Source: a virus
Lineage: Duplodnaviria > Heunggongvirae > Uroviricota > Caudoviricetes
Length of the DNA stretch: 24,127 bases
Reading direction: 5' to 3' (one strand)
IMG/VR virus record: IMGVR_UViG_2703718829_000007
Span: 1-24,127 of that record
Shown here: piece by piece, positions 1,934 to 24,127 of the stretch
Position numbering within the stretch: the stretch's first letter is position 1
How the letters are laid out: every line of letters starts with the position of its first letter
Notes under the pieces: generated by a model
Told to the model about the DNA's origin: nothing
Seen by the model: only the letters and a program-made list of their open reading frames with translations
Databases searched by the model: none
Made by a program: the position numbers and the translations under genes

Positions 1934-1972
1934 ATACCCGCGAAAAATGAAATTTAACCAGGAGTGCCGCAT

Positions 1973-4197: not shown

Positions 4198-4208
4198 CTG
4201 AGGTAATT

Positions 4209-4391
4209 ATGATCATGCTGATTCTCGCGCCTCTGGTGGGCGTGCTGGGGGCGCTTTTGCTGGCGTATGGTGCCTGGCTGATTTATCCCCCGGCGGGGTT
4301 TGTTGTTGCCGGGGCGTTGTGCCTGTTCTGGTCGTGGCTGGTGGCGCGATATCTCGACCGTACACAGTCGTCTGTCGGCGGAGGTAAATAG
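4209..4391 (+). CDS. small hydrophobic protein with two predicted transmembrane segments
   Basis: 60 aa, two hydrophobic stretches ([22 protein letters not shown] / [16 protein letters not shown]). GAGGT SD 5 nt upstream; the stop overlaps the GTG start of the portal gene. Confidence 0.5.
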
Positions 4392-6260: not shown

Positions 6261-6274
6261 TCAGGAGAAATACG

Positions 6275-7480
6275 ATGGCGGTTGATATTAAAGATGTCGA
6301 ACAGGTCGCGCAGGAGCTGCAGCAGAAGTTTGACGACTTCAAAGCAAAGAACGACAAGCGCGTGGATGCGATTGAGCAGGAAAAAGGCAAGCTTGCCGGG
6401 CAGGTGGAAACCCTGAACGGGAAACTCAGCGAGCTGGAAAATCTCAAAAGCGACCTTGAAAAAGAGCTTCTTGAGCTGAAACGTCCGGCTGGTGGAGCGC
6501 AAAATAAACTGGCCACCGAGCATAAAGAGGCGTTTGTGGGCTTCCTGCGTAAAGGCCGTGAAGACGGTCTGCGCGATCTGGAGCGTAAGGCATTGCAGGT
6601 GGGTACCGATGAAGACGGTGGCTACGCCGTGCCGGAAGAACTGGATCGCAACATTCTTAACCTGCTGAAAGATGAAGTGGTGATGCGTCAGGAAGCCACG
6701 GTGATCACCGTTGGCGGTTCCGACTACAAAAAACTGGTGAATCTGGGCGGTACGGCTTCCGGATGGGTGGGGGAAACGGATACGCGATCCCAGACTGCCA
6801 CCTCCAGACTGGAGCTGATTGAACCTCTCATGGGGGAAATTTACGGCAACCCGCAGGCTACCCAGAAAATGCTGGACGATGCCTTCTTCAACGTGGAGGC
6901 CTGGATCAACAGCGAGCTGGCAACCGAATTTGCCGAACAGGAAGAAATTGCCTTTACCTCAGGCGATGGCACCAAGAAGCCGAAAGGGTTCCTGGCGTAT
7001 GAATCCACTGATGAAACCGACAAGGTCCGGGCGTTCGGCAAACTTCAGCATATTGTATCCGGCGAAGCGACCGCGGTGACCGCAGACGCCATTATCAAAC
7101 TGATTTACACGCTGCGTAAGGCACACCGCACTGGCGCGAAGTTCATGATGAACAACAACAGCCTGTTTGCCATCCGTCTGCTTAAAGACAGCGAGGGTAA
7201 CTATCTGTGGCGTCCGGGGCTGGAACTGGGGCAGCCGTCCTCTCTGGCGGGTTACGGTATCGCTGAAAACGAACAGATGCCGGATATCGCCGCTGATGCG
7301 AAAGCCATTGCATTTGGTAACTTCAAACGGGGTTACACCATCGTTGACCGTATCGGCACCCGCATTCTGCGTGACCCGTACACCAATAAACCGTTTGTCG
7401 GTTTTTATACTACCAAGCGCACCGGCGGGATGCTGGTCGATTCGCAGGCCATCAAACTGCTGAAGATTGCAGCGGCGTAA
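6275..7480 (+). CDS. major capsid protein (HK97 fold) with N-terminal coiled-coil delta domain
   Basis: 401 aa; N-terminal ~100 aa are strongly coiled-coil (scaffold-like delta domain), followed by a capsid body. Strong AGGAG SD. Confidence 0.9.
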   Translation: MAVDIKDVEQVAQELQQKFDDFKAKNDKRVDAIEQEKGKLAGQVETLNGKLSELENLKSDLEKELLELKRPAGGAQNKLATEHKEAFVGFLRKGREDGLRDLERKALQVGTDEDGGYAVPEELDRNILNLLKDEVVMRQEATVITVGGSDYKKLVNLGGTASGWVGETDTRSQTATSRLELIEPLMGEIYGNPQATQKMLDDAFFNVEAWINSELATEFAEQEEIAFTSGDGTKKPKGFLAYESTDETDKVRAFGKLQHIVSGEATAVTADAIIKLIYTLRKAHRTGAKFMMNNNSLFAIRLLKDSEGNYLWRPGLELGQPSSLAGYGIAENEQMPDIAADAKAIAFGNFKRGYTIVDRIGTRILRDPYTNKPFVGFYTTKRTGGMLVDSQAIKLLKIAAA

Positions 7481-7487
7481 TCACTCA

Positions 7488-7515
7488 GGGGCGCGGAACC
7501 GCGCCCCCTGTTCTG
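7488..7515 (+). terminator. hairpin after the capsid gene (terminator/attenuator)
   Basis: GGGGCGCGG-AA-CCGCGCCCC is a perfect 9-bp GC stem, followed by CTGTTCTG. Confidence 0.5.
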
Positions 7516-7529
7516 ACGGGTGAAGAATC

Positions 7530-7730
7530 ATGATCCTGAAACAAGATCTGAAATGGTCACCGGACGGTATGCGTGTTGAGGTCATTCGGGCCGGTGAGTA
7601 TGACGACGGGGCACTTCCTGCCCGGGTGCAGGAGATTGCACTTCAGGCCGGGTTAGCAGAGCGCGGAATCAGTGCAAAAAGCAGTAAAGCGGCAAAAGAG
7701 AAAAAAGCCACGACCAGTAAAGAGGGCTGA
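7530..7730 (+). CDS. hypothetical small protein between capsid and connector genes
   Basis: 66-aa ORF that fits the gap in the operon; C-terminus is Lys/Ala/Ser-rich. No recognised domain. Confidence 0.4.
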   Translation: MILKQDLKWSPDGMRVEVIRAGEYDDGALPARVQEIALQAGLAERGISAKSSKAAKEKKATTSKEG

Positions 7731-7732
7731 GT

Positions 7733-8056
7733 ATGCTTCTGACAATGGAAGAGATTAAAGCCCAACTCCGGCTGGATGAGGATTTCGATGCTGATGACCG
7801 CCATCTGCAACTGCTGGCCTGTGCGGCACAAAAGCGGACGGAAACGTATCTGAACCGGAAGCTCTATGCACCGGATGAAACCATTCCGGACAGCGATCCG
7901 GACGGGCTGCACCTGCCGGATGATATTCGTCTGGGGATGCTGATGCTTATCAGCCATTTTTACGAAAACCGCTCGTCGGTTACGGAAGTGGAGAAACTCG
8001 ACATGCCGCAGAGTTTTGGCTGGCTTGTCGGCCCGTACAGGTACTTTCCGCAATGA
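7733..8056 (+). CDS. head-tail connector protein (gp6-like)
   Basis: 107 aa, N-terminus MLLTMEEIKAQLRLDEDFDADD, typical of gp6-like head-tail connector proteins; position after the capsid gene. Confidence 0.78.
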   Translation: MLLTMEEIKAQLRLDEDFDADDRHLQLLACAAQKRTETYLNRKLYAPDETIPDSDPDGLHLPDDIRLGMLMLISHFYENRSSVTEVEKLDMPQSFGWLVGPYRYFPQ

Positions 8057-8463
8057 AAATTCGTCAGGCGCAGACCAGCGCAACCTACATTCTGCCGGAC
8101 CCCGGCGAACTGAATAAACGCGTCCTGATCCGCCAGCGGGTGGATATGCCCGCGGATAACTTTGGCGTGGAGCCTCAATACCCGGTTGCGTTCCGGGCAT
8201 GGGCGAAGGTTATCCAGACCAGTGCCACCACCTGGCAGGAAACCGCGCAGACCGGAGATGCCATCACCCATTACATCACCATTCGCTACCGCCGGGGGAT
8301 CACTGCTGATTATGAGGTGGTCTGTGATGACAGTGTGTACCGGGTGAAACGTCAGCGCGATCTGAACGGGGCGCGGCGCTTTCTGCTGCTGGAGTGTACG
8401 GAACTGGGCGAATTTACGCAGAGTCACGGAGGCAGCAATGGCGACTCCCTTTTTGCACGTTGA
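8053..8463 (+). CDS. head-tail adaptor / head closure protein
   Basis: 136 aa, translationally coupled to the upstream gene; size and position match head closure proteins of HK97-like heads. Confidence 0.7.
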   Translation: MKIRQAQTSATYILPDPGELNKRVLIRQRVDMPADNFGVEPQYPVAFRAWAKVIQTSATTWQETAQTGDAITHYITIRYRRGITADYEVVCDDSVYRVKRQRDLNGARRFLLLECTELGEFTQSHGGSNGDSLFAR

Positions 8464-8944
8464 TGTTCAGCAGCCCGCGGAGATGCGCTTTAACCGCGCC
8501 CGTGTCCGGCGGGCGTTTGTCACGATTGGGCAGCGTCATATGCGTGATGCCCGTCGGCTGGTGATGCGCCGTGCGCGGTCGGCACCGGGTGAAAACCCCG
8601 GTTATCAGACCGGACGCCTGGCTCGTTCGATTGGCTACATGGTGCCGAGAGCCAGTAAAAAGCGAGCCGGTTTTATGACACGCATTGCCCCTAACCAGCG
8701 CAACGGGAAGGGGAACCGGATGATCTCTGGTGACTTTTATCCGGCGTTTCTGTTTTTTGGTGTCCGGGGAGGAGCAAAACGTCGTTGTAGTCATCATCGT
8801 GGTGCATCCGGTGGCAGCGGCTGGCGGCTGGCTCCACGTAATAACTTTATGGTGGAAACGCTTGAAAAGAACCGCAGCTGGACACGCTATTTTCTGGCGC
8901 GGGAATTACGTAAATCACTGAAGCCGGAGCGACGACACAGATGA
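8438..8944 (+). CDS. HK97 gp10-like neck/tail-joining protein
   Basis: 168 aa, basic, with a ...GYQTGRLARSIGY... region resembling HK97 gp10-family proteins. Confidence 0.7.
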   Translation: MATPFLHVDVQQPAEMRFNRARVRRAFVTIGQRHMRDARRLVMRRARSAPGENPGYQTGRLARSIGYMVPRASKKRAGFMTRIAPNQRNGKGNRMISGDFYPAFLFFGVRGGAKRRCSHHRGASGGSGWRLAPRNNFMVETLEKNRSWTRYFLARELRKSLKPERRHR

Positions 8945-9501
8945 AACTGACGCCTGTTATTGCTGCGCTGCGTGCCCGCTGCCCGTATTTTGAAAACCGG
9001 GTGGCAGGCGCGGCACAGTTCAAAAATCTGCCGGAGGTCGGAAAGCTGAGACTCCCGGCGGCGTATGTGGTACCGGGTGATGACTCTCCGGGAGAAAACA
9101 AAAGCCAGACCGACTACTGGCAGGAGCTGAAAGAGGGCTTCTCCGTGGTTGTCATACTGAGTAACGGGTGTGATGAGCGCGGTCAGTTTGCCTCGTATGA
9201 TGTGGTGGACGATGTCCGGCAGATGCTCTTTAAGGCCCTGCTGGGCTGGAACCCGGAAGCGTGCGGTAACCCGATTACCTATGACGGCGGCACGCTGCTG
9301 GATCTGAATCGTCATGAGCTGATTTATCAGTTCGATTTTTCGGCCATCAGCGAGCTGACCGAAGACGATACCCGCCAGCAGGATGAGCTGAACAGTCTGG
9401 ATGAACTGCGAACGCTGGCGATTGATGTTGATTATCTCGATCCCGGTAACGGCCCTGACGGCGATATCGAACATCACACCGAAATAACCCTTCCTTCCTG
9501 A
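8941..9501 (+). CDS. tail completion / neck protein (Mu gp37-like)
   Basis: 186 aa immediately upstream of the sheath gene; acidic C-terminus. Placement matches Mu-like tail modules. Confidence 0.55.
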   Translation: MKLTPVIAALRARCPYFENRVAGAAQFKNLPEVGKLRLPAAYVVPGDDSPGENKSQTDYWQELKEGFSVVVILSNGCDERGQFASYDVVDDVRQMLFKALLGWNPEACGNPITYDGGTLLDLNRHELIYQFDFSAISELTEDDTRQQDELNSLDELRTLAIDVDYLDPGNGPDGDIEHHTEITLPS

Positions 9502-9509
9502 GAATCTTC

Positions 9510-9680
9510 ATGTTTGTGAAACCTGTTAAAGGGCGGTCAGTGCCTGACCCTGCCCGCGGTGACCTTTTGCCCACCGAAGGGCGAAATGTTGACGAGAACA
9601 ACTACTGGCTGCGCCGTGAAGCAGCGGGTGATATCCGGCGCGTGAATAAAAAGGTGAACACCGATGACGATAAGCTTTAA
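9510..9680 (+). CDS. small conserved tail-module protein (DUF2635-like)
   Basis: 56-aa ORF not in the track because it is under 60 aa (MFVKPVKGRSVPDPARGDLLPTEGRNVDENNYWLRREAAGDIRRVNKKVNTDDDKL). Its 3' end overlaps the sheath start; a protein of this type commonly precedes Mu-like sheath genes. Confidence 0.5.
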   Translation: MFVKPVKGRSVPDPARGDLLPTEGRNVDENNYWLRREAAGDIRRVNKKVNTDDDKL

Positions 9681-11160
9681 CACCATTCCGTCGAATACGC
9701 TGGTTCCGCTGTTTTATGCGGAAATGGATAACCAGGCTGCGAATACTGCACAGGACAGCGGAGCATCGCTGCTGATTGGTCATGCCAATAACGGTGCAGA
9801 GATTGTTGCCAACAGTCTGGTGCTGATGCCGTCGGCAGACTATGCACGCCAGATTTGTGGTGCGGGAAGTCAGCTGGCGCGTATGGTCGAGGCTTATCGC
9901 CAGACCGACCCGTTTGGTGAGCTGTATGTGATTGCCGTTCCGGAAGCCACAGGCGCGGCGGCAACGGTTACGCTGACGGTGACCGGGGAAGCAACCGAAA
10001 GCGGCACGGTGAATGTCTATGTGGGACGTACCCGCGTGCAGGCACCGGTGACCAACGGCGATAACGTTGCGACGATTGCCAGCAGTATCCAGGATGCCAT
10101 CAATGCCGTTCCGGCCCTGCCGTTTACTGCCTCATCTTCGGCAGGCGTGGTCACACTGACCGCGCGTCATAAGGGGCTTTGCGGGAATGAAATTCCTGTC
10201 AGCCTCAATTACTACGGCTTTGGTGGGGGCGAAGTGCTGCCAGCGGGCGTACAGATTGCCGTGGCGACGGGTACCGCCGGAACGGGCGCTCCTGTTCTCA
10301 CCGGCGCGGTGGCTGCAATGGCGGATGAGCCGTTTGATTATATCGGCCTGCCGTTCAACGACACGGCCTCCGTTAACACGCTGGTGACCGAGATGAACGA
10401 TACCAGCGGTCGCTGGAGCTATGCGCGTCAGCTGTATGGTCATGTGTATACGGCAAAGATCGGCACGCTGTCAGAACTGGTGACCGCAGGTGACCAGTTT
10501 AACCAGCAGCACATTACCCTGGCGGGATACGAAAAAGAGACCCAGACGCCTGCCGACGAGCTGGCGGCAAGCCGTACCGCCCGCGCAGCGGTGTTTATCC
10601 GCAACGATCCGGCACGTCCCACGCAGACCGGTGAGCTGGTGGGTATGCTGCCTGCGCCGAAGGGGAAACGGTTCACGATGACCGAACAACAGACCCTGCT
10701 GGCTCATGGCGTGGCAACGGCGTATGTCGAAAGCGGGGTGCTGCGCATTCAGCGTGATGTCACCACGTACAGGAAAAACGCTTACGGTGTTGCGGATAAC
10801 AGCTACCTCGACAGCGAGACGCTGCATACCAGCGCGTATGTGCTGCGCAAACTGAAATCCGTCATTACCAGTAAGTACGGGCGTCACAAGCTTGCCAGCG
10901 ACGGTACCCGCTTTGGTCCCGGTCAGGCGATTGTCACACCGGCGGTGATCAAAGGGGAACTGCTGGCAACCTACCGTCAGCTTGAGCGTGCGGGGATCGT
11001 GGAAAACTACGAACTGTTTAAGCAGTACCTGGTTGTGGAGCGTGATGCCAGCGATCCGAACCGCCTGAACACGCTGTTCCCGCCTGACTATGTTAACCAG
11101 TTGCGTGTCTTTGCCGTGGTTAACCAGTTCCGTCTTCAGTATTCAGAGGAGTCTGCATAA
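9664..11160 (+). CDS. contractile tail sheath protein
   Basis: 498 aa, followed directly by a tube gene, chaperone pair and tape measure; sequence character fits Mu L-type sheath proteins. Confidence 0.9.
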   Translation: MTISFNTIPSNTLVPLFYAEMDNQAANTAQDSGASLLIGHANNGAEIVANSLVLMPSADYARQICGAGSQLARMVEAYRQTDPFGELYVIAVPEATGAAATVTLTVTGEATESGTVNVYVGRTRVQAPVTNGDNVATIASSIQDAINAVPALPFTASSSAGVVTLTARHKGLCGNEIPVSLNYYGFGGGEVLPAGVQIAVATGTAGTGAPVLTGAVAAMADEPFDYIGLPFNDTASVNTLVTEMNDTSGRWSYARQLYGHVYTAKIGTLSELVTAGDQFNQQHITLAGYEKETQTPADELAASRTARAAVFIRNDPARPTQTGELVGMLPAPKGKRFTMTEQQTLLAHGVATAYVESGVLRIQRDVTTYRKNAYGVADNSYLDSETLHTSAYVLRKLKSVITSKYGRHKLASDGTRFGPGQAIVTPAVIKGELLATYRQLERAGIVENYELFKQYLVVERDASDPNRLNTLFPPDYVNQLRVFAVVNQFRLQYSEESA

Positions 11161-11516
11161 TGGCCCGTATCGGGGGAACCTGTTATTTCAAAATTGACGG
11201 TCAACAGCTATCGCTGACCGGCGGCATTGAGGTGCCCATGAACAGGACGGTCAATGATGACATCATCGGCCTGGACGGTTCAGTGGACCGCAAGGAAACT
11301 CACCGTGCGCCTTATGTCAAAGGGACTTTCAAGGTGCCGAAGAATTTTCCGGTGAACAAAATCACCTCGTCTGATGAGATGACTATCACTGCCGAGCTGG
11401 CGAACGGTCAGGTCTATGTACTGTCGTCTGCCTGGCTGCACGGCGAAGCGAACCATAATGCCGAAGAAGGCACGGTTGATCTTGAGTTCCACGGTGAAGA
11501 AGGGGATTACCAGTAA
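11160..11516 (+). CDS. tail tube protein
   Basis: 118 aa, ATG overlaps the sheath stop (TAATG), strong AGGAG SD; size and position match a tail tube. Confidence 0.85.
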   Translation: MARIGGTCYFKIDGQQLSLTGGIEVPMNRTVNDDIIGLDGSVDRKETHRAPYVKGTFKVPKNFPVNKITSSDEMTITAELANGQVYVLSSAWLHGEANHNAEEGTVDLEFHGEEGDYQ

Positions 11517-11785
11517 TGAAAGAGCTTGAGTTAAAGAAACCGATTACTGCTCATGGCGAGACACTCTCCGTACTGGAGTTTGATGAGCCCACCGGGAAGG
11601 ATGTCCGCGAGCTGGGGTATCCCTACCAGATGAATCAGGATGAGTCAGTCAAACTTCTGGCGCATGTGGTGTCGAAATACATTGTGCGGCTGGCGAAAGT
11701 GCCGCAAAGCTCTGTCGACCAGATGTCTCCGGCAGACCTGAATGCAGCGGCGTGGCTTGTGGCTGGTTTTTTCCTCCAGGCCTGA
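11516..11785 (+). CDS. tail assembly chaperone (G-type)
   Basis: 89-aa ORF between tube and tape measure, ending just past a TTTTTTC slippery site. Confidence 0.75.
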   Translation: MKELELKKPITAHGETLSVLEFDEPTGKDVRELGYPYQMNQDESVKLLAHVVSKYIVRLAKVPQSSVDQMSPADLNAAAWLVAGFFLQA

Positions 11786-11934
11786 CGGCTGAATACCTCA
11801 CTGATCGCTTCTTTGACTGCGCCAGCTACTGGCGCATTAATCCTTTCGAATTGCTGAATATGCCGATCAGTGAAATTCCCTTACTGGTCAGTCAGGCAAA
11901 CAGGATAGAGCAGGAGAAACGCACACATGGCTGA
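11516..11934 (+). CDS. tail assembly chaperone, -1 frameshift fusion product (GT-type)
   Basis: The -1 frame ORF (11752..11934) overlaps the 3' end of the chaperone gene. A shift at T_TTT_TTC (11767-11773) would fuse it to give a longer product ending 8 bp after the tape-measure start. Confidence 0.55.
11767..11773 (+). promoter_or_regulatory. programmed -1 ribosomal frameshift slippery heptamer (TTTTTTC)
   Basis: The X_XXY_YYZ heptamer T_TTT_TTC sits in the zero frame of the chaperone ORF (codons GGT TTT TTC), 12 nt before its stop, with the -1 frame open downstream. Confidence 0.55.
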
Positions 11935-13759
11935 ATTTGAGCTTAAGGCGTTGATCACCGGTGTCGACAGGCTTTCTCCCGCGCTGTCGAAAATGCAAAA
12001 GAAAATCCGGGGATTTAAACGCCAGGCGGAAGAAGCGTCACAGGGTGGGCTGGCGCTTGGGGGCGGACTGGCAGCGGGTCTGACGCTTTCCCTGAAATCT
12101 TATGCCGATCAGGAAAACGCCGCCACCGGGCTGAAAGTCGCCATGATGGATGCGAACGGCGAGGTTGGAAAGAGCTTTCAGGACATCAATAAACTGGCTA
12201 TTGGCCTGGGTAACCAGCTACCCGGTACAACGGCTGATTTCCAGAACATGATGCAGATGCTGGTGCGTCAGGGGATCCCGGCAGAAAACATTCTGGGTGG
12301 TGTGGGTAAAGCGACAGCTTATCTTGCGGTACAACTGAAAAAAACACCGGAAGCGGCTGCCGAGTTTGCTGCAAAGATGCAGGATGCTACCGGAACGGCG
12401 TCAGAAGACATGATGGGGCTGTTCGACACTATCCAGAAGGCGTTTTATCTGGGCGTTGACGATACCAACATGTTGTCCTTCTTCACTAAAACCAGTTCTG
12501 TTCTGAAGATGGTGAACAAGGACGGTCTTCAGGCTGCACAGAGCCTTGCCCCCATCAGCGTCATGATGGATCAGATGGGGATGAACGGGGAGTCGGCAGG
12601 TAATGCCCTGCGAAAAGTTATCCAGTCCGGATTAAGTGTTAAGAAAATCAGGGACGTCAATAAAGTCATGGCCCGCCAGAAACTCGGGGTACAGCTCGAT
12701 TTTACTGACGGCAAAGGAAGTTTTGGCGGTCTTGATAACATGTTCAGGCAACTGGCAAAGTTGCGAAAACTGACCGACGTTAAGCGAACCGGTGTACTTA
12801 AGGCAATATTTGGTGATGATGCCGAAACCCTTCAGGTGGTCAATGCCCTGATCGATAAAGGAAAGGATGGCTACGATCAGATCCAGCAGAAGATGAATAA
12901 ACAGGCCAGCCTGAATAAACGTGTTCAGGCTCAGCTTGGTACGCTGTCCAACCTGTGGGAGGCAATGACGGGGACCGCAACTAACGGTCTTGCAGCTATT
13001 GGCGGCGCATTTTCTGGTGACGCTAAAAATATCACGCAATGGCTGGGGGAGTTGGGGGAAAAATTCACGAAGTTTGCGGATGAAAATCCCCGGGTTATTC
13101 GCGGCGTCGTCGGGCTTGCTGCCGGTCTTGCGATTCTGAAACTGGGATTGATGGGCGTTGGCGGTGCCATCAGTATTGTCAGCAGGATCATGTCGATGAC
13201 GCCGATTGGCATGATTGCGACGGCGATAGCCCTGGCTGCGGGATTAATTATCACTAACTGGGATGTTGTCGGACCTTATTTTAAGAAACTCTGGGAAACC
13301 ATTGGTCCTTATTTTGAGACTGGCTGGGAACTTCTTAAGAAGGTTTTTGCCTGGTCGCCGCTGGGGATGGTGATCAATAACTGGGGACCGGTTGTTAAGT
13401 GGTTTCAGGATATGTGGGACAAGCTGAAGCCAATTATTGAGTGGTTTACCGACAGTTCCGGTGACACGGTCGATGCCATTAACTCTGCGCAGTGGGGCGC
13501 GGGTGCTTATGATGCTTATGGGACGGGAATACCGGCGCGGGGATACACACCTTATCCGGCGGTGGATCCGGCTCAGGCAAACAACGCCTCCGGTGCCACA
13601 GGCCCGAATCCCTTCATGATTAATAAAGCTACCGCGCCAAAAGTTGATGGTGAGATCAAGGTATCATTTATAAATATGCCATCAGGTATGCGGGTTACGG
13701 AAACACGCTCCAGTGGCATTGATATAAATCACGATGTTGGCTATACCCGATTTTGGTAG
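11927..13759 (+). CDS. tail tape measure protein
   Basis: 610 aa, alpha-helical and Ala/Gly/Leu-rich, with a hydrophobic segment (VIRGVVGLAAGLAILKLGLMGVGGAISIV...); lies after the chaperone pair. Confidence 0.9.
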   Translation: MAEFELKALITGVDRLSPALSKMQKKIRGFKRQAEEASQGGLALGGGLAAGLTLSLKSYADQENAATGLKVAMMDANGEVGKSFQDINKLAIGLGNQLPGTTADFQNMMQMLVRQGIPAENILGGVGKATAYLAVQLKKTPEAAAEFAAKMQDATGTASEDMMGLFDTIQKAFYLGVDDTNMLSFFTKTSSVLKMVNKDGLQAAQSLAPISVMMDQMGMNGESAGNALRKVIQSGLSVKKIRDVNKVMARQKLGVQLDFTDGKGSFGGLDNMFRQLAKLRKLTDVKRTGVLKAIFGDDAETLQVVNALIDKGKDGYDQIQQKMNKQASLNKRVQAQLGTLSNLWEAMTGTATNGLAAIGGAFSGDAKNITQWLGELGEKFTKFADENPRVIRGVVGLAAGLAILKLGLMGVGGAISIVSRIMSMTPIGMIATAIALAAGLIITNWDVVGPYFKKLWETIGPYFETGWELLKKVFAWSPLGMVINNWGPVVKWFQDMWDKLKPIIEWFTDSSGDTVDAINSAQWGAGAYDAYGTGIPARGYTPYPAVDPAQANNASGATGPNPFMINKATAPKVDGEIKVSFINMPSGMRVTETRSSGIDINHDVGYTRFW

Positions 13760-13787
13760 CCAGGATTCCCCTCACAGGTATTGCTGG

Positions 13788-13815
13788 TTGTAAGTCATAA
13801 ATAGAGTGATAGAAT
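13788..13815 (+). promoter_or_regulatory. candidate sigma70 promoter for the AT-rich tail-module gene
   Basis: TTGTAA (13788-13793), 16-bp spacer, TAGAAT (13810-13815), about 35 bp upstream of ATG 13851. Read by eye, weak. Confidence 0.3.
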
Positions 13816-13850
13816 TAATGCACATTTAGAAAAATGTTAATAGGCGAAAA

Positions 13851-14381
13851 ATGAAAGGCTATATCACAGCAAGTGTAATTCTTGGAGCGGCGGCTATTTT
13901 TTCATCTCTCATAATCTCTGGCAACATCTCCTTTAAAGATGAACATATTATTCAGTTATCTGGAGGAGCCATAAAACTTGGTGATGTTTATAAAGAAAAT
14001 AAATTGATAAGTGCAAAGATTATTTTTCCAGATAATCAGGGTGAACAGATTCTTGTTGTCGACGGCAATCCTGAAAACTTTAAGGAGGATTTTCAGGAGA
14101 AATTAAATAAAGTAATAAAAACTTTAAATGCGTCAAAGAAAAAAGATGAAGAGAAAGTTAGCCTGGATAATTTAAGTGTTGTTGAAGAGTCTAAACTAGA
14201 GCTCGTTTCTGCGGTGCGTTACTCTGCTCAGTATGTTCCTATGTTTACTCTGACGCTGGACAAAAAAGAAATTACCATGCCTAAAAATACGGTAATATTT
14301 CCATTTGCCAGCGATGAAACAGCTAAGTATTTAAATGAACAACAGCAAAAGTATAAAGATTCGTTGTTTCTGACTCGCTAA
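13851..14381 (+). CDS. hypothetical exported or membrane-anchored protein (insertion in the tail module)
   Basis: 176 aa, visibly AT-rich and Lys/Asn/Ile-rich, unlike the flanking genes. N-terminal hydrophobic segment (ITASVILGAAAIFSSLIISG) with no lipobox Cys. Flanked by a promoter-like sequence upstream and a hairpin terminator downstream. Confidence 0.6.
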   Translation: MKGYITASVILGAAAIFSSLIISGNISFKDEHIIQLSGGAIKLGDVYKENKLISAKIIFPDNQGEQILVVDGNPENFKEDFQEKLNKVIKTLNASKKKDEEKVSLDNLSVVEESKLELVSAVRYSAQYVPMFTLTLDKKEITMPKNTVIFPFASDETAKYLNEQQQKYKDSLFLTR

Positions 14382-14398
14382 TTAATAAAATTCATTAC

Positions 14399-14432
14399 AA
14401 GGCCACCTTCTAATAGGTGGCTTTTTAATTTT
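14399..14432 (+). terminator. Rho-independent terminator after the AT-rich tail-module gene
   Basis: GCCACCT (14402-14408), loop TCTAAT, AGGTGGC (14415-14421), then TTTTTAATTTT. Confidence 0.6.
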
Positions 14433-14442
14433 CGGAGTATAT

Positions 14443-15771
14443 ATGACGTGGAAAGACAGGCTTCAGGATGCGTCATTTCGAGGTGTGCCGTTTAAGGTTG
14501 AAGAAGAAACTGCGGGAACTGGCCGTCGTGTGGAAACGCACGAATACCCGAACCGCGACAAACCCTATACCGAAGACCTGGGGAAAATCACTTTCCGCCC
14601 GTCCATCACGGCTTATGTGGTGGGAGATGACTGCTTTGACCAGCGCGATCGCCTGATTGACGCGCTGAATAAACCCGGTCCCGGCACGCTTGTCCATCCG
14701 ACTTACGGTGAGCTGAAAGTCTGTGTTGACGGAGAATTTCGGGTCAGCACATCGAAGAGTGAAGGGCGTATTGTCCGCTTTGACCTGAAGTTTGTCGAAG
14801 CGGGAGAACTCTCTTACCCCACATCAGGTGCGGCGACGGCGCAGACGCTGATGTCATCCTGTTCTGCACTGGATGACTGCATCAGTGACAGTTTCAGTAG
14901 TTTCAGTATCGATGGCGTGGCAGATTTTGTGCAGAACGATGTCGTCGGTAATGCCAGCACAATGCTTGGGTATGTTTCTGATGCGATGAAAGTGGTGGAT
15001 TCTGCCGTATCGGATGCCGCCAGGCTGTTGCAGGGGGATATCTCGGTACTTCTGCCGCCGCCATCGTCAGGCAAAAATTTCGTTGAGCAGGTGCAGAAAA
15101 TGTGGCGTACCGGGAAACGCCTTTATGGTAACGCCAGCGACCTGGTCACCATGATCAAAACGCTTTCCGGTGTCAGCCTCGGCAGCGATCTGCAACCGCG
15201 CGGCGTCTGGAAAACGGACAGTAAAACCACCGCCACGGCGACGCAGCAGCGTAACGTGGTTGCCAGCACCCTTCGTATGACCGCAATCAGCGAAGCGGCG
15301 TATGCCGTTACCCGATTGCCTGCGCCAACAACTTCTGCGGTGATGCAGAATGCCGCAGTGGGGCAGTCAACAACACCCGCGCAGAGCTCCGGCTGGCCTG
15401 CCGTCACGCATCCGGTGCTGAACAATGCACCGGCGGTGAAAAACACGGTTGACCTGCCAACGTGGGAAGAACTGACCGACATTCGCGACACACTGAATAT
15501 GGCAATTGATAAGGAGTTGTCCCGTACAACCAGTGATGCGCTGTTTCTGGCGCTGCGCCGGGTGAAAGCAGATCTGAATGCGGATATCAACACGCGCCTT
15601 GAACAGTCTGCTCGGATCATTCAGCGCACGCCGGATGAGGTTTTACCCGCGCTGGTGCTGGCGGCGACCTGGTTTGATAACGCGGCGCGTGACGCGGACA
15701 TTATCCGGCGTAATGCCATTACGCATCCCGGCTTTGTGCCGGTGATCCCTCTGAAGGTGCCAGTGCAATGA
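14443..15771 (+). CDS. DNA circularization protein (Mu N-like)
   Basis: 442 aa; N-terminus MTWKDRLQDASFRGVPFKVEEETAGTGRRVETHEYPNRDKPYTEDLG is characteristic of Mu N-type DNA circulation proteins; lies after the tape measure. Confidence 0.8.
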   Translation: MTWKDRLQDASFRGVPFKVEEETAGTGRRVETHEYPNRDKPYTEDLGKITFRPSITAYVVGDDCFDQRDRLIDALNKPGPGTLVHPTYGELKVCVDGEFRVSTSKSEGRIVRFDLKFVEAGELSYPTSGAATAQTLMSSCSALDDCISDSFSSFSIDGVADFVQNDVVGNASTMLGYVSDAMKVVDSAVSDAARLLQGDISVLLPPPSSGKNFVEQVQKMWRTGKRLYGNASDLVTMIKTLSGVSLGSDLQPRGVWKTDSKTTATATQQRNVVASTLRMTAISEAAYAVTRLPAPTTSAVMQNAAVGQSTTPAQSSGWPAVTHPVLNNAPAVKNTVDLPTWEELTDIRDTLNMAIDKELSRTTSDALFLALRRVKADLNADINTRLEQSARIIQRTPDEVLPALVLAATWFDNAARDADIIRRNAITHPGFVPVIPLKVPVQ

Positions 15772-16847
15772 ACGACAATGTCACGCTACGGGTAAATGGC
15801 CGGGAGTGGAATGGCTGGACATCGGTGCGCATCGGTGCCGGTATTGAACGGCTGGCGCGGGATTTCAGCGTGGAGATCACCCGCCAGTGGCCGGGAGATG
15901 AGGGTATCACCACGCTTCAGCCGCGCATTAAAAATGGTTCAAAAGTGGAAGTGCTGATTGGTGATGAGCTGGTGATCACCGGCTGGGTGGAGGCGACCCC
16001 CGTTCGTTACGATGCCCGTTCGGTCAGCACCGGTATTGCCGGACGTAGTCTGACTGCTGACCTGATTGACTGTGCAGCCGAACCGACACAGTTTAACGGA
16101 CGATCGCTGGTACAGATTGCGCAGGCGCTTGCTGCGCCTTTCGGCATTGAGGTGGTGAACAACGGTGCGCAGTCGGGTGTTATTCCTGACGTCCAGCCCG
16201 ATCACGGTGAAACGGTGATTGAGGTAATCAACAAAATACTCGGTCAGCGGCAGGCACTGGCTTACGACGACCCGCACGGCAGGCTGGTGATTGGTGGTAT
16301 TGGCTCAACGCGGGCACATACTGCGCTGGTACTCGGGGAAAACATCCTTTCCTGCGATACGGAGAAGAGTATCCGGGAGCGGTTTTCAGTTTACCAGGTG
16401 GCGGGGCAGCGTGCCGGAAACGACGATGATTTCGGTGAGGCCACCACCACCGCGCTGCGGGCCCGCACAGAGGACGCATTTATTGCCCGTTACCGTCCGA
16501 TGTATATCAGGCAGACAGGGCAGGCTACGGGGGCAGGCTGTATTGCCCGTGCGGACTTTGAAGCCCGACAACGGGCGGCGCGGACGGATGAAACCACCTA
16601 TGTGGTGCAGGGCTGGCGACAGGGTAACGGTACGCTGTGGCAGCCCAACCAGCGGGTGATTGTCTTTGATCCGGTCTGTGGTTTCGACAATACCGAACTG
16701 CTTGTTTCGGAAGTCACGTTTACTCAGGACCAGAACGGCACCCTGACGGAAATCCGTGTCGGCCCGCCTGATGCTTATCTGCCTGAACCCGAAGCCCCCG
16801 GCGCGCGGAAAAAGAAAAAAGCCAGAGTACAGGAGGACCCGTTCTGA
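15768..16847 (+). CDS. baseplate hub protein (Mu P / gpD-like)
   Basis: 359 aa, translationally coupled to the upstream gene; position and size match Mu gene P. Confidence 0.72.
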   Translation: MNDNVTLRVNGREWNGWTSVRIGAGIERLARDFSVEITRQWPGDEGITTLQPRIKNGSKVEVLIGDELVITGWVEATPVRYDARSVSTGIAGRSLTADLIDCAAEPTQFNGRSLVQIAQALAAPFGIEVVNNGAQSGVIPDVQPDHGETVIEVINKILGQRQALAYDDPHGRLVIGGIGSTRAHTALVLGENILSCDTEKSIRERFSVYQVAGQRAGNDDDFGEATTTALRARTEDAFIARYRPMYIRQTGQATGAGCIARADFEARQRAARTDETTYVVQGWRQGNGTLWQPNQRVIVFDPVCGFDNTELLVSEVTFTQDQNGTLTEIRVGPPDAYLPEPEAPGARKKKKARVQEDPF

Positions 16848-17395
16848 TGAGGACGATTGAAGCCATGCAGCGACAACTCCTCGGCCTGATTGGGCGGGCC
16901 GTGGTGAAAAGCATCAGTGCCGCCACGAAATGTCAGACCGTGGATGTGTTCCTGATTGCCGGTGAACCCAAAGCCGGGGTTGAACATCTTGAACCCTACG
17001 GTTTTACCGCAAGGGCAAACAGCGGTGCGGAAGCGGTGGTGTTGTTTCCGGATGGCGACCGTTCTCATGCGGTGGTTGTTACGGTGTCGGACCGTCGCTA
17101 CCGCCTGAAAGGGCTGCAGACGGGTGAGGTGGCTGTCTATGACGATCAGGGGCAGTCCGTGACGCTGACCCGGGAGGGGATCGTGGTGGACGGTGCAGGT
17201 AAAACGATCACGTTTCGCAATGCACCTGAAGCACGTTTTGAAATGGACCTGGAAGTGACAGGACAGGTGAAAGACCTGTGCGACTCCGGCGGCACCACCA
17301 TGTCAGCGATGCGGCTTGCCTATAACGGGCATAGTCACAGAGAGAACGGTCAGGGCAGTAACACCGACAAACCGGATAAAGCGATGGAGGCATGA
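16847..17395 (+). CDS. baseplate spike / assembly protein V-like
   Basis: 182 aa, coupled (ATGA overlap); C-terminal region with an HSH motif; position matches the gpV-like spike of Mu-like baseplates. Confidence 0.75.
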   Translation: MRTIEAMQRQLLGLIGRAVVKSISAATKCQTVDVFLIAGEPKAGVEHLEPYGFTARANSGAEAVVLFPDGDRSHAVVVTVSDRRYRLKGLQTGEVAVYDDQGQSVTLTREGIVVDGAGKTITFRNAPEARFEMDLEVTGQVKDLCDSGGTTMSAMRLAYNGHSHRENGQGSNTDKPDKAMEA

Positions 17396-17820
17396 TGGAA
17401 CTGTGGCTGACGGTGAACGGTAAACGCACCTGCGCCAGCGCACCGCTGGATCCGCTGACCCGCGCCGTGGTGATTTCCCTGTTTACCTGGCGGCGGGCGG
17501 AGCCTGATGACAACGCCGACGTCCCGATGGGATGGTGGGGGGATACCTGGCCTGCGGTACAGAATGACCGTTACGGCTCCCGACTGTGGCTGCTTCAGCG
17601 CAGCAAACTGACCAATCAGCTGGTGCAGACGGTAAGGGGGTATATCCGCGAATGCCTGCAATGGATGATTGATGATGGCGTGGTGTCCCGTATTGATCTG
17701 GATATCCGCCGCACCGGGATTAATGAACTGGGTAACAGTATCACTCTCTGGCGTCGTGACGGACCGGTAATGATTTCTTTTGATGATCTGTGGAGTGCGA
17801 TAACGCATGGCGGACAGTGA
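17392..17820 (+). CDS. baseplate wedge protein (Mu gp46 / GPW-gp25-like)
   Basis: 142 aa between the spike and the J-like protein; coupled start. Confidence 0.65.
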   Translation: MMELWLTVNGKRTCASAPLDPLTRAVVISLFTWRRAEPDDNADVPMGWWGDTWPAVQNDRYGSRLWLLQRSKLTNQLVQTVRGYIRECLQWMIDDGVVSRIDLDIRRTGINELGNSITLWRRDGPVMISFDDLWSAITHGGQ

Positions 17821-18865
17821 ATTTCAGCGCCCGACGCTGGCAGAAAATATCAGTATGCTCCGTAACGATTTATTCGCCAGGCTGGACGTCAGCGACACGC
17901 TCCGGCGCATGGATGAAGACGTGCGGGCAAAGGTGTATGCGGCGGCGCTGCATACGGTTTACGGGTACATCGATTATCTGGCAATGAACATGCTGCCTGA
18001 CCTGTGCGATGAGTCCTGGCTGGCGCGACATGCTGCGATGAAACGGTGTCCGCGCAAGGGGGCCACGGCTGCCAGCGGGTATATGCGCTGGGAAGGTGTC
18101 AGCGATGGCCTGAAGGTGACCGCCGGGAGTGTTATTCAGCGCGATGACCTGGTTCAGTACACGGCAACTGCTGATGCAACCAGCTCCGGTGGTGTCCTGC
18201 GCGTGCCGATCACCTGCTCAACTACAGGCGTGGTCGGTAACGCTGACGACGGTACGGCATTAATCCTGGTCACGCCGGTGAATGGTCTGCCGTCTTCCGG
18301 CGTGGCAGATACACTGACAGGTGGATTTGATACTGAAGAGCTGGAAACGTGGCGCGCCCGCGTCATTGAGCGGTATTACTGGACGCCTCAGGGCGGGGCT
18401 GACGGGGACTATGTCGTCTGGGCTAAAGAAGTACCCGGCATTACCCGCGCATGGACATACCGACACTGGATGGGAACGGGGACTGTCGGTGTGATGATTG
18501 CCAGCAGTGACCTGATTAATCCCATTCCGGAAGAGTCAACGGAAACGGCGGCAAGACAACATATCGGGCCACTGGCCCCGGTGGCAGGCTCTGATTTGTA
18601 TGTATTCAGGCCGGTGGCGCATAAAGTGGATTTTCATATCCGCGTGACGCCGGACACACCGGAAATACGGGCTGCCATCACCGCCGAGTTGCGTTCGTTC
18701 CTGCTGCGTGATGGTTATCCGCAGGGAGAACTGAAGGTGTCACGTATCAGTGAAGCGATTTCCGGTACGAACGGGGAATACAGCCATCAGTTGCTTGCCC
18801 CGGCGGACAATATCTCCATTGCAAAAAATGAGCTGGCGGTTCTGGGGACGATTTCATGGACGTGA
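17807..18865 (+). CDS. baseplate J-like protein
   Basis: 352 aa; position and size match Mu gp47 / Baseplate_J family. Confidence 0.8.
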
Positions 18866-19440
18866 CAAACGATGATTATATCCGTCTGTTGTCGGCACTG
18901 TTGCCGCCCGGTCCGGCGTGGTCAGTCAGCGATCCGGCGATTGCCGGTGCGGCACCGTCATTAACCCGCGTTCATCAGCGTGCGGATGCCCTGATGCGGG
19001 AGCTGGATCCGCGCACCACCACTGAACTGATAAACCGCTGGGAGCGTCTGTGCGGTCTGCCGGATGAATGTATTCCCGCAGGGACACAGACCCTTCGCCA
19101 GCGTCAGCAACGGCTGGATGCGAAGGTTAATCTGGCGGGCGGCATCAATGAGGATTTTTATCTTGCACAGCTTGCTGCCCTGGGCAGACCAGACGCCACT
19201 ATCACGCGATACGATAAAAGCACGTTCACCTGCTCATCGGCCTGTACTGACGCAGTGAATGCGCCGGAATGGCGGTATTACTGGCAGGTCAACATGCCAG
19301 CCGCCACCAACACCACCTGGATGACATGTGGCGATCCCTGTGATTCCGCACTGCGTATCTGGGGCGACACCGTTGTCGAGTGCGTGCTTAACAAACTCTG
19401 CCCTTCGCATACCTACGTAATTTTTAAATATCCGGAGTAA
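18856..19440 (+). CDS. tail protein, DUF2313-like (Mu gp48 / YmfQ-like)
   Basis: 194 aa, Cys-rich C-terminus, between the J-like protein and the tail fibre. Confidence 0.7.
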
Positions 19441-19443
19441 TCC

Positions 19444-20490
19444 ATGCATCGTATAGACACGAAAACCGCGCAGAAGGATAAGTTCGGCGCGGGTAAGAAC
19501 GGTTTTACCCGTGGTAACCCCCAGACCGGCACACCTGCCACCGATCTGGATGATGACTACTTTGACATGTTGCAGGAAGAACTTTGTAGCGTTGTTGAGG
19601 CATCCGGTGCCAGTCTGGAGAAGGCGCGGCACGACCAGCTGCTTACCGCACTTCGTGCGCTGCTGTTAAGCCGCAAGAATCCGTTTGGCGATATCAAATC
19701 GGATGGCACTGTGCAAACGGCTCTCGAAAACCTTCAATTGCGAGAATCATTCACAGGTGTGGTTGGTCAGGCCGTTAACCAGAAAATGAGCGTGGCAATA
19801 GCGTCGGCATCAGCAACATTCACCGCTGACCAGGTTATTGTTGGTGAGTCATTATCTGGCAAGCAGTACCGTGTAAGTTCGGTAAGCGAAACTATCAACC
19901 TCACCACGACTGGGGCGGGCGGGATGGATACAGGAGCAGCCCCTGCCAGTGGTTGGGTTGCTATTTACCTTATTTACAACCCAACGACCAACACCTCAGC
20001 ATTACTTGGTGTTAACACGACAACCGTCGTTGCGCCCACAGTCTACGGCGGTGCAAACATGCCAGCGGGATATACGGCGAGCGCACTCGTATCCGTCTGG
20101 AGAACAACAAGCGGCTCTTTGCTTCTGAATGGGTACCAGCGAGGTCGAAAATTTTGCATCCCGCGTGTAGATGTACTGACCACAAGCAGTAACCCAGGAC
20201 CATACTCACCAATCCCTCTTAGCGCAGCCGTACCGCTAAACGCTATAGCAGCGAGTGGTTACGCATTCTGTAACTCAGGCTCTGGTTCTGGGTTTGCGGT
20301 TTTGTCTGTCGGGTCTGATGCAAATGGGCTTGGGTATTTTCAGGTGTATGCCGGGCTGGTTGGTTCGCTAGGGAGCGATATCTATTTTGAGAATACCCTC
20401 GCTGAACCTCAAAAACTTTACTACACGTTTACCTGGACAACGCCAGCAGTGTCAAATGCCACCATTGGGATAAGCGGTTATACGATCTAA
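19444..20490 (+). CDS. tail fibre protein
   Basis: 348 aa; conserved N-terminal domain ([47 protein letters not shown]...) followed by a Ser/Thr/Gly-rich variable C-terminal part typical of receptor-binding fibres. Confidence 0.8.
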
Positions 20491-20882: not shown

Positions 20883-20886
20883 GTGG

Positions 20887-22092
20887 TTATATTTTTGCTT
20901 TACTGATAAAATTATCTAGGGTTTTTCCTACGGTACGGCTAAGTATCACTGATTTTTTCTCTATTAATTGATAAAATATCATTGAACCAATTAAAGAAAG
21001 AGTGACGAATACTAAAAAGGAAGCAATGTATGCTAAATAAACGTTATTTGTATGAATATATACATATAGGTTTATTGGCATTATTGCAGATGAAAGAACT
21101 AACCAGTGAACAAGGTATAAAGAGAAAGAAATTTTCCCAAAAAATTGAACAAGTTTAGTGGATAGGAAATCGCGAATGTATCCTCTGGACATTACTAGAA
21201 TTAGCAATAATATTGCACCGACACCACGTAAAAACTCGTATGGGTGGTAAGGGAACATCCCAGGAATCGATAAGTCTTGCATGTTTATTAATGGGGCAAC
21301 AAAATAGTTCCCTGGTATAAAAATCCAACCCCAGGGATAGAATACCGGGCAACTTTGAAGTATCACTATAGCTAATATCATTAGCAAAGTAATAACGTAT
21401 TTTTCTTTGTTGTTAAATAAATTGCTTGTTTTTTCGTCGGCAAACAAGATGGATATCCATGCGCCAATGAGAAGAAAAAACACATAATATCCGTAACTAA
21501 AGATAGTAAATAAAAATAATAAAAGAATGCCATGCCTTGAATTATTTCTTCCTACCTGAGCAACAATTAATAGTAACAGCGAGCCCATAAACTCAGTCGA
21601 CATTGACCATATTACAGGGTTAAGAAATCTAGTTGAAAAATCTGTGGTATATAGCGTAAGAATGCCTTGCTTTATTACTTCATCGAAAGCTACATTTTCA
21701 TCGTGATCATAACGAAATCCAGATTTTACTAAGATATATCCAATAATACAGGAAGCAAATACAGGAACACCAAGTCGAATAAAACGACGTATTAATGATG
21801 CTATAAATGTTGTATTTGCTTTGAAGGCGCCAAGAAGAATTGCGCCAGATAAGATGAAAAAAACTATAGTAGCAAAATTACCATTGATAGTGAATACGAA
21901 TGGTGTCGTTTCAGTAAATTCGTAGAATTTTGAAAGCCAATAAGGGAATGCATCTGGGTAGTGTGAAAGCATAAAAAGCTTTGTTTCACCAAAAAAATGA
22001 CCATAAGCAACAATTATAGCCATTAGTCCGCGTAACCCATCAAAATATAGGATTCTGTTCTTTTTTTGTTCCAATTTATTGAACCTCATCAT
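20887..22092 (-). CDS. acyltransferase family 3 integral membrane protein (probable O-antigen / polysaccharide O-acetyltransferase, lysogenic conversion)
   Basis: About 400 aa, very hydrophobic with many predicted TM helices. N-terminal signature ...ILYFDGLRGLMAIIVAYGHFF... matches the conserved Arg/His region of AT3 acyltransferases (Oac/OafA-type). Visibly AT-rich. Start is uncertain: the track uses a TTG at 22137; the ATG pair at 22087-22092 fits family N-termini better. Confidence 0.8.
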   Translation of the reverse strand: MMRFNKLEQKKNRILYFDGLRGLMAIIVAYGHFFGETKLFMLSHYPDAFPYWLSKFYEFTETTPFVFTINGNFATIVFFILSGAILLGAFKANTTFIASLIRRFIRLGVPVFASCIIGYILVKSGFRYDHDENVAFDEVIKQGILTLYTTDFSTRFLNPVIWSMSTEFMGSLLLLIVAQVGRNNSRHGILLLFLFTIFSYGYYVFFLLIGAWISILFADEKTSNLFNNKEKYVITLLMILAIVILQSCPVFYPWGWIFIPGNYFVAPLINMQDLSIPGMFPYHPYEFLRGVGAILLLILVMSRGYIRDFLSTKLVQFFGKISFSLYLVHWLVLSSAIMPINLYVYIHTNNVYLAYIASFLVFVTLSLIGSMIFYQLIEKKSVILSRTVGKTLDNFISKAKI

Positions 22093-23096
22093 TTCAAAAT
22101 AGTGAGCAATGATAGTGTTAAGAGTGTAGTAAAGCAATGCCTTCTGGAATCGAAGTTAAAACAACGGAGCTTAAATTAGTTGAAGTGAGATTTGCTAATA
22201 AAGGTAATAAATTCAATCAATTACTTCTTGAGGGCGTATTGGTGTTAAGAAGATTTTAACATTGTATCACATACCACGGGGGCATTCTGATGAAATCAGA
22301 AAAATAGACAGGGTAATAGCTATCGATTGATGATGGTGGTTGCTATGCTTCATATAGAGTTTCCGATACTATCACGCACATTATTAATGATAGCAGAACG
22401 GTGGAGTTTAATGGTTGGCCAAGCCTTGTTGAACAATGGTTAATCATGCTGTTTTAATATACCTTCTTTGGAGAAAAATGCTAACAACTCCAACGTGCAT
22501 TGCCCGAGATTGGCTGTAACCATAATAATTTTATGGAGTTTATTGAATAAACCCGAGTTAGTAGACAGGATGACGCCTACCGGAACACCCGTTATGCGAT
22601 GCGGACGCTGTCCGGCATACCCAGCACGGTCATCCGGTTTAGCGCTTTGACCATCGCCGTTTCTGCCACTGAACGACGGTGATAACCCACTTTCTTTTTC
22701 CAAACATAATTGCTGGATAGGGTCAGGGTTATTATGATGCTTGGAATTATCGAACGCTGCCGCAGAATGTTAGAGAACGGAGCAATCCGGCAACGTGATC
22801 GGTGTGGGGGTAAAGACGATTTATAAATACTTTCCTGTCACAAGTCCAGCGCGTAATGCCAGTTCCCGAGTGTAGGTATGATCATGAAAAAGTGGTGCGC
22901 ACCTAAATATCTTTAATACAGGCGTAGGATGCCATGCATTAGGATCGGGTTAAACAGGGATGTTTACGTTCTGGAAAACTGCCCGCAGATAGCCGGCGTG
23001 ATCTAGAATGATTTTTGTGTACATATATGTGTACTGTACAAAAGAAGATTTGGCTTTTAATTTCAATAAAAACAATAAATTGAATTGTTTTTAAAA

Positions 23097-23119
23097 TATA
23101 TCCATTTAACTAAGAGGAC
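23097..23119 (-). pseudogene. 5' fragment of a tRNA-Arg(CCU)-like gene (argW-like), apparently truncated
   Basis: Minus-strand sequence GTCCTCTTAGTTAAATGGATATA matches the first 23 nt (acceptor stem, D-arm) of enterobacterial tRNA-Arg(CCU) as recalled from memory. What follows is AT-rich and cannot form anticodon or T arms. Lies about 75 bp downstream of the YfdC-like gene. Confidence 0.35.
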
Positions 23120-23194
23120 AATGCGGCATGAGTATACCCGCTAATGGAGTGCGGGGTAAGTACGCTGCCGCTCGATTGCTTAAACCCTCGCCAT

Positions 23195-24127
23195 TTATGC
23201 CGGGTTTTTATAATTTTTCTTAATGTTTTCCGCACGTTCTGCTTTTTGGCGTGCTTCTGCTTTACGCTTATTGCTCATGTCGTTACGAATCTGTGCATGA
23301 CTCATTAACGCGAAGATAAAGGTGCCGCCGCAGATGTTCCCCGCTAAAGTAGGTAGTGCGAAGGGCCAGATGAAATCGCTCCAGTGCAGCGTACCGTTAA
23401 ACACCAGATAGAGGATTTCAACAGAACCGACCACGATATGGGTGGTGTCACCCAGGGCAATAAGCCAGGTCATCAATATAATCACCACAATCTTTGCCGC
23501 ACCCGCTGCAGGAAACATCCAAACCATAGTGGCGATCAGCCAGCCGGAAATGATCGCGTTGGCAAACATCTCGCTGGGGGTGTTCTTCATCACATCCATG
23601 CCGATTTTGACAAATGCATCGCGAGTTTCTTCATTGAAGATAGGCATATATTCAAATGCCCACGCCGCAATACCTGTCCCGAGAATATTACCCAGCAGCA
23701 CGACGCCCCATAACCGTATAAGTAAGCCGACGTTGCTCATTGTCGGTTTTTGCATGACGGGTAGTACCGCAGTCACGGTATTTTCGGTAAATAATTGCTG
23801 GCGGGCCATAATGACGATAATAAAACCAAAGGTATAACCGAGATTCTCCAGCAAGAAGCTGCCCGGCACACCTTCCAGTTCGACTTGAAATATCCCTTTT
23901 GCCAGTAACGAAGCGCCCATCGACAGACCCGCCGCAATGGCTGACCACAGTAGCGCCATTGCGTCGCGTTCCAGCTCTTTTTCACCATCCTGGCGGATAT
24001 GCTCATGAATTGCCATCGCCCGGGAGGGGAGTCGGTCTTCATCTATTTCTATTTTTTTGCCGCGCTCTTTTTCTTCGCTCTCAACTTCCATTTCGTCGCT
24101 GTGTTGATCAATTTTGTCGTTGTCCAT
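23195..24127 (-). CDS. yfdC: formate/nitrite transporter (FNT) family inner-membrane protein, YfdC-like (host gene)
   Basis: 310-aa ORF with a hydrophilic acidic N-terminus followed by multiple TM helices. The start codon is at the very end of the window. Codon usage is host-like. In E. coli-like genomes yfdC lies next to argW, a known prophage integration site. Confidence 0.75.
   Translation of the reverse strand: MDNDKIDQHSDEMEVESEEKERGKKIEIDEDRLPSRAMAIHEHIRQDGEKELERDAMALLWSAIAAGLSMGASLLAKGIFQVELEGVPGSFLLENLGYTFGFIIVIMARQQLFTENTVTAVLPVMQKPTMSNVGLLIRLWGVVLLGNILGTGIAAWAFEYMPIFNEETRDAFVKIGMDVMKNTPSEMFANAIISGWLIATMVWMFPAAGAAKIVVIILMTWLIALGDTTHIVVGSVEILYLVFNGTLHWSDFIWPFALPTLAGNICGGTFIFALMSHAQIRNDMSNKRKAEARQKAERAENIKKNYKNPA

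Follow-up and report, generated by a model that had tools for sequence, protein, structure and literature searches.

The argW 5' fragment beside yfdC very probably marks one end of an SfII-like prophage integrated near the start of this tRNA gene

The stretch of DNA analysed here, referred to as the window, comprises positions 1 to 24,127 of the IMG/VR virus record IMGVR_UViG_2703718829_000007, at its full length of 24,127 nt. Most of it (1..20490, plus strand) is the late region of a prophage resembling the Shigella phages SfII, SfI, SfIV and SfV, with functions for lysis, packaging, head, contractile tail and baseplate. From about 1860 to 19734, the sequence is about 97% identical to these four phages, which possess a contractile tail and Mu-like baseplate genes; about 97% identity is likewise found to Escherichia phage vB_EcoM-689R6 between 19 and 19746. 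The resemblance to SfII, SfI, SfV and vB_EcoM-689R6 breaks off within the tail-fibre gene (19444-20490), an ORF of 348 aa, at about 19734-19746. No Pfam family matches the C-terminal part of this ORF, which may be a receptor-binding module acquired by exchange.

Between the tail-fibre gene and the attachment arm of the prophage lies a cargo block of 3.3 kb (19750-23015), which is present in 1 of 5,426 complete E. coli genomes. It encodes an acyltransferase-3 family membrane protein (20887..22137, minus strand; Pfam PF01757, Acyl_transf_3, E=3.5e-21), a cargo or moron gene with a GC content of 30-36%. In serotype-converting phages, this position, from the tail fibre to the att arm, is occupied by O-antigen modification genes. 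The cargo region also harbours a remnant of an IS5/IS1182-family transposase (22592..22714, minus strand), which is annotated by RefSeq in E. coli strain 720632 (L001 44765..44887) and was mapped to the window by alignment offset.

The opposite end of the window consists of host DNA. The gene yfdC (23195..24127, minus strand), a host gene of the formate/nitrite transporter family located upstream of argW, was taken from the ORF list and is so annotated in 720632, K-12, O157:H7 and EC7; the window ends with its start codon. It is followed by the native yfdC-argW spacer (23120..23194, minus strand), which is near-identical to that of K-12 and would hold the displaced host promoter of argW. In our reading of the letters, TATACT at 23131..23136 may be the -10-like element of this promoter. 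The next sequence, GTCCTCTTAGTTAAATGGATATA (23119..23097, minus strand), begins 75 nt past the yfdC stop codon, exactly as argW does in K-12, and is identical at 23 of 23 positions to nt 1-23 of K-12 MG1655 argW, the gene of the tRNA-Arg with anticodon CCU. This fragment contains the 5' acceptor strand, nt 8-9, the 5' D-stem, the D-loop and the first two nucleotides of the 3' D-stem. Its part from argW nt 6 to nt 23, CTTAGTTAAATGGATATA (23097..23114, minus strand), is the core identity block of this type of phage, as the tRNA gene of 720632 departs from argW at nt 2 and nt 5, and the window does so from nt 24 on. Past nt 23, the window continues with TTTTAAAAACAATTC..., which is unrelated to argW.

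The fragment and its exact break point are directly seen in the window. Positions 23097-24127 are 99.9% identical to K-12, and in all K-12-like genomes found by megablast among complete E. coli genomes, the match to the window ends exactly at 23097. The preliminary description of this DNA had recognised the 23-mer on the minus strand as the 5' end of an argW-type tRNA-Arg and had suggested comparing the junction with prophage-free relatives. The alignment with genomes of the K-12 type, in which yfdC, the spacer and nt 1-23 are colinear with the window up to 23097, bears out this identification. It had also placed the truncation correctly: ARAGORN finds 0 tRNA genes in the window, and a permissive Rfam scan of 22000-24127 returned only chance-level matches and no tRNA at E<=10. 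The fragment therefore does not offer tRNA finders the complete cloverleaf of a functional tRNA gene. It is a tDNA end fragment, identical to the gene and lying at the native chromosomal position in the native orientation of argW. The shortness of the match is the sole point in favour of regarding the 23-mer as a chance resemblance to argW, or as part of a complete tRNA gene missed by the tools. This explanation is already refuted, since the match is exact, syntenic and preceded by the native spacer, and neither ARAGORN nor Rfam detects a tRNA. Moreover, the 18-nt core occurs as a single copy in the window, with 0.02 copies expected by chance at up to 3 mismatches, and this rarity, together with the syntenic position, excludes a chance match.

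The regenerated tRNA gene and the integrase that belong to this junction are known from relatives rather than from the window's own genome, the far prophage end lying beyond the window. The nearest of them is strain 720632, the only genome that matches 22140-24127 at 100% in a megablast search of the 5,426 complete E. coli genomes, and its identity to the window is 99.9% over 14695-24127. The gene order in 720632 is dsdC, tRNA-Arg, tyrosine integrase, IS1, baseplate genes, acyltransferase, 23-mer and yfdC. A copy of IS1A, at L001 36119-36816, has taken the place of the whole interval from the integrase to halfway through the DNA-circulation gene. This deletion of most of the prophage, compared with the undeleted late region of the window (1-14694), identifies the window as coming from a close relative with a fuller prophage.

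The tRNA gene at the far prophage end of 720632 (L001 34768-34842) has the orientation of the fragment and is called Arg(cct) by ARAGORN. Its sequence, GCCCCCTTAGTTAAATGGATATAACGAG..., starts with GCCCCCT instead of the GTCCTCT of the host; it differs at nt 2 and 5 and equals host argW from nt 6 on. The DNA upstream of it is unrelated to the yfdC-argW spacer. These differences at the 5' end, together with the unrelated upstream DNA, imply that the element supplies the first nucleotides and the upstream region, and that the host promoter and nt 1-23 have been displaced towards yfdC. Since dsdC lies 95 nt past the 3' end of this tRNA gene, the 3' side of argW is unoccupied in 720632. Upstream of the regenerated gene and divergent from it lies the integrase gene (L001 35038..36108), the 356-aa product of which combines the Pfam domains PF13356 (Arm-DNA-bind_3) and PF00589 (Phage_integrase). 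The earlier remark that no intact gene is nearby thus holds inside the window, but not beyond it, where the regenerated argW is found at the far prophage end of relatives. Similarly, the proposal to search that end did resolve the question, although the 3' portion of the tRNA gene had been expected there and, in 720632, a complete gene with a phage-derived 5' end was found.

The integrase of 720632 belongs to a family with known members. It shares 95% identity with integrases from induced phages of E. coli and Klebsiella, and 86% with those of more than 100 Stx2a-converting phages whose known integration site is argW, among them ArgO145, Stx2 phage 86, VT2phi_272, PA2, PA8, PA28 and Stx2a_F451. 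An attachment site with the same core is directly seen in a free phage genome of this group. On the circular genome of Stx2 phage 86, the interval between orf35 and int contains ...CTTGATTttaaaaccataaagacggTATTATcagtcatatggtgaacaaccaaaatcaatacgcaacaat-GTCCTCTTAGTTAAATGGATATAA-tgaacataaatatc..., that is, an attP in which argW nt 1-24 stands behind a promoter-like pair of hexamers and joins both arms. The free-phage attP of the exact phage in the window was not found, and the attP read here is that of a phage with an 86% identical integrase. In an O157:H7 lysogen, the yfdC-side junction (attL) consists of the host spacer, the same 24 nt and a phage arm of the Stx2-86 type. In these Stx2a phages, a very large ORF (orf35 of Stx2 phage 86, annotated with an LPD38 domain) adjoins the distal att arm and converges on the fragment; behind orf35 comes a GC hairpin, CCCCG...CGGGG, which on the tRNA strand lies about 115 nt downstream of the 24-nt core.

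A further independent lysogen is EC7; its prophage measures about 37 kb and includes a lambdoid-type tail gene. The junction on the yfdC side (attL) keeps host argW nt 1-22, and the one on the dsdC side (attR) holds a complete tRNA-Arg gene that starts with GTCCCCT, with the integrase gene 195 nt away. The regenerated gene and the adjoining tyrosine integrase are therefore directly seen both in the nearest relative of the window and in independent lysogens, and in 720632 as well as in EC7, the second core lies in the same orientation, within a complete tRNA gene at the other end of the prophage. The record ON470608 (vB_EcoS-733R5, here 733R5) was considered as a source of an intact attP, but was ruled out: it includes host flank in the form of a complete tRNA-Arg and a sucrose permease gene, and its att site is accordingly an attR. 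Although labelled as a complete phage genome, this record contains host DNA, its ends are not phage ends, and the annotation of its integrase CDS begins at an upstream start.

On the phage side of the break, the AT-rich sequence 23016..23096 (minus strand) is the phage-derived distal (P') att arm, and 23016 is also where other genomes cease to match the window. The arm contains the motif TGTACNCA as a pair, AGTACACA at 23028..23035 and TGTACACA at 23016..23023 (both minus strand). Homologous distal arms with the same paired motif, otherwise diverged, are found in the attP of Stx2 phage 86 and in the attL of O157:H7 and of EC7. The spacing of the pair is kept as well, with AGTACTCA and TGTACACA in Stx2-86 and O157, and TGTACTCA and TGTACACA in EC7. 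Across the window, TGTACNCA is not enriched (2 matches versus 2.2 expected), so it is the conserved position in the arms that counts as evidence. This conservation makes the pair a candidate for arm-type sites, to which the N-terminal arm-binding domain of the integrase would bind.

The combination of a tRNA fragment, an abrupt end of homology and mobile elements at a prophage hotspot could also be read as the leftover of argW after a deletion or an IS-mediated rearrangement, without any site-specific recombination. The preliminary description had offered this as one of two explanations. The IS5 remnant, located about 380 nt from the fragment, and the IS1-mediated internal deletion of the 720632 prophage do attest IS activity at the locus. 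However, such an event would leave an idiosyncratic break with neither a partner copy nor a conserved arm, and the comparison reveals the reverse. In three unrelated types of element, the break lies at argW nt 22 (EC7), 23 (window) or 24 (Stx2a phages), followed each time by a homologous att arm with the paired TGTACNCA motif. The same core is present in the attP of a free phage, and in relatives an intact argW with a phage-supplied 5' sequence lies beside the integrase at the far prophage end. In addition, argW is split alike in 235 genomes. A deletion or rearrangement is therefore not supported and is considered very improbable. The second suggestion, an unusual crossover position, was right: this family of integrases recombines in the 5' acceptor and D-arm part of argW and duplicates the 5' end of the gene, not the 3' end.

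Hence, the fragment is very probably the host part of an SfII-like myovirus att junction, named attL or attR according to the convention used. Integration near the start of argW with a phage-borne replacement of that start is a known, but less common, use of tRNA genes. It differs from integration at the 3' side, in which a 3' fragment is displaced and the integrase lies downstream of an intact gene; the fragment found here is nt 1-23. In the proposed sequence of events, a temperate SfII-like myovirus would carry a P4-like tyrosine integrase (Arm-DNA-bind_3 plus catalytic domain) and an attP holding a copy of the 5' part of argW with a phage promoter ahead of it. The prophage would land inside argW, so that a dead stub, made up of the native promoter and nt 1-23, stays behind next to yfdC. 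At the far end of the prophage, the body of argW would be joined to nt 1-5 and an upstream region supplied by the phage, and this fusion would regenerate a complete tRNA-Arg(CCU) gene adjoining the integrase gene.

The exact positions of strand exchange, like the arm-type sites, are proposed here from sequence comparison. The block common to all partners is argW nt 6-22, CTTAGTTAAATGGATAT, which spans the last two nucleotides of the acceptor stem, nt 8-9, the 5' D-stem, the D-loop and the first nucleotide of the 3' D-stem. Judging from this shared block, strand exchange must be confined to the core, most narrowly to nt 6-22. By analogy with the anticodon-loop and T-loop sublocations, it would probably take place in the D-loop, between the partly symmetric halves of the D-stem.

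Alignment of the int-proximal arms from 720632, 733R5 and Stx2-86 needs no gaps, and all three possess three direct TGTAC(A/T/G)CA repeats near int. These arms also have in common a CTTGAT-N18-TAACAT/TATTAT block; from the end of its second hexamer to nt 1 of the tRNA downstream, the distance is about 40 nt. Any phage that integrates at the 5' side must supply a promoter for the regenerated tRNA gene, and this block is the putative one. A sigma-70 consensus scan returned no call for the native argW promoter or for the proposed phage promoter, the 720632 version of which matches the consensus at 8 of 12 positions. As the scan is uninformative, statements on promoters rest on conservation and on reading by eye. 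A terminator scan found none, including in the interval between the fragment and the acyltransferase gene.

The three phage versions of the tRNA 5' end are not equivalent in predicted structure. In minimum free energy (MFE) folds of this tRNA, which has a 4-nt variable loop, both the host version and the Stx2-86 version form the full cloverleaf at -26.0 kcal/mol, and the 733R5/EC7 version turns the U5.G wobble into a C-G pair, reaching -29.0 kcal/mol. The C5 of the 720632 version likewise turns U.G into C-G, but its C2 is mismatched with A, which opens the first two acceptor pairs in the fold (-24.2 kcal/mol). With this C2.A mismatch, the regenerated argW of 720632 may be less than fully functional.

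This fold, and the dependence of argW expression on a putative phage promoter, are the arguments for a different outcome of integration, namely that an imperfect phage 5' end inactivates or weakens argW, in a gene disruption possibly reversed by excision. That outcome is very unlikely. Other types of phage bring a 5' end that is either perfect (Stx2-86) or, with C5-G, stabilising (733R5, EC7), and the 720632 gene is still called tRNA-Arg by ARAGORN and RefSeq. The promoter-like upstream block, moreover, has been kept across integrases that are only 86% identical, which argues for selection to keep argW expressed. Regeneration of argW by the phage thus remains the preferred reading. A bolder possibility, to which little probability is given, is that in this lineage the stub, in which this family of integrases leaves the strong native argW promoter facing the prophage, serves as a host promoter captured by the element, with the acyltransferase gene about 960 nt downstream in the same direction, and that the only tRNA-Arg(CCU) gene is under a phage promoter with an imperfect C2.A stem. 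If so, decoding of AGG in the lysogen would be set by the phage.

The frequency of such junctions was assessed with a query composed of the K-12 spacer and complete argW. Among the 5,426 complete E. coli genomes, argW is contiguous with the spacer in 5,191 and split from it in 235 (4.3%); the split genomes contain 237 extra match places, as expected for one stub and one regenerated gene per genome. The configuration seen in the window is thus common. Short megablast queries of the junctions (5 genomes for attL, 24 for attR) undercount relatives because the arms diverge outside short motifs, and the exact int-proximal arm of 720632 occurs in 1 complete E. coli genome only. In about 4% of complete E. 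coli genomes, Stx2a lysogens included, argW has therefore been rebuilt with a 5' end of phage origin and, probably, with a promoter of the phage as well. In annotation, a tRNA 5' stub next to yfdC is to be taken as an exact prophage boundary rather than as damage to the genome, and the positions of the second boundary and of the integrase can be predicted from it.

The feature is already known to the field. The integration sites of argW Stx phages are routinely called by means of a 24-bp att sequence, and Stx2a phages with argW among their integration sites have yielded K-12 lysogens (10.1101/2024.03.06.583675). In a long-read study of O157:H7, the yfdC-argW interval is listed as holding an stx2a prophage, and the argW-lacY interval as holding an Sp16-like element (PMC8190617); according to this table, both ends of argW are in use in one genome. 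The element of the window resembles the argW Stx2a phages in its target gene and the end of the gene used, in an overlapping core (their nt 1-24 versus nt 6-23 here) and in an 86% identical integrase. It also shares with them the paired TGTACNCA motifs in the distal arm, the three copies in the int-proximal arm and a distance of 195 nt from tRNA nt 1 to the start of int. Unlike those short-tailed Stx phages, it has the body of an SfII-like myovirus with acyltransferase cargo. Its arms have diverged outside the motifs, its identity block is shorter, and nt 2 and 5 of the phage version differ from the host in the nearest relative.

A comparable strategy was described in 2020 for islands and prophages of Klebsiella pneumoniae, where integrases of clade I.d target the 5' end of the tRNA-Arg gene arg2A and integrate upstream of it (10.1101/2020.11.02.365908). 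The repeats of clade I.d cover the 5' acceptor half plus both D-stem and D-loop, termed a "novel D-loop sublocation" by the authors of that study. By this published description, the arg2A elements, which belong to another host species, resemble the element of the window in using the 5' end of a tRNA-Arg gene. Klebsiella phages in GenBank encode an integrase 95% identical to the one beside the regenerated argW of 720632. The Islander algorithm also explicitly permits a 5' fragment upstream of the tDNA (PMC4383910). The window thus provides a clear example that tRNA-targeting integrases are not limited to the 3' side.

The classical argW elements, KplE1/CPS-53 (IntS), Sf6, HK620, Kapi1 and Sp16, are reported to use the same gene and, as here, carry a replacement segment in attP. 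In elements of the KplE1/CPS-53 type, however, the 3' part of argW is duplicated, the element lies downstream of the gene with int adjoining the tRNA's 3' end (K-12), and no promoter is needed. In the element of the window, by contrast, it is the 5' part that is duplicated, the prophage is located upstream, and a promoter must be supplied.
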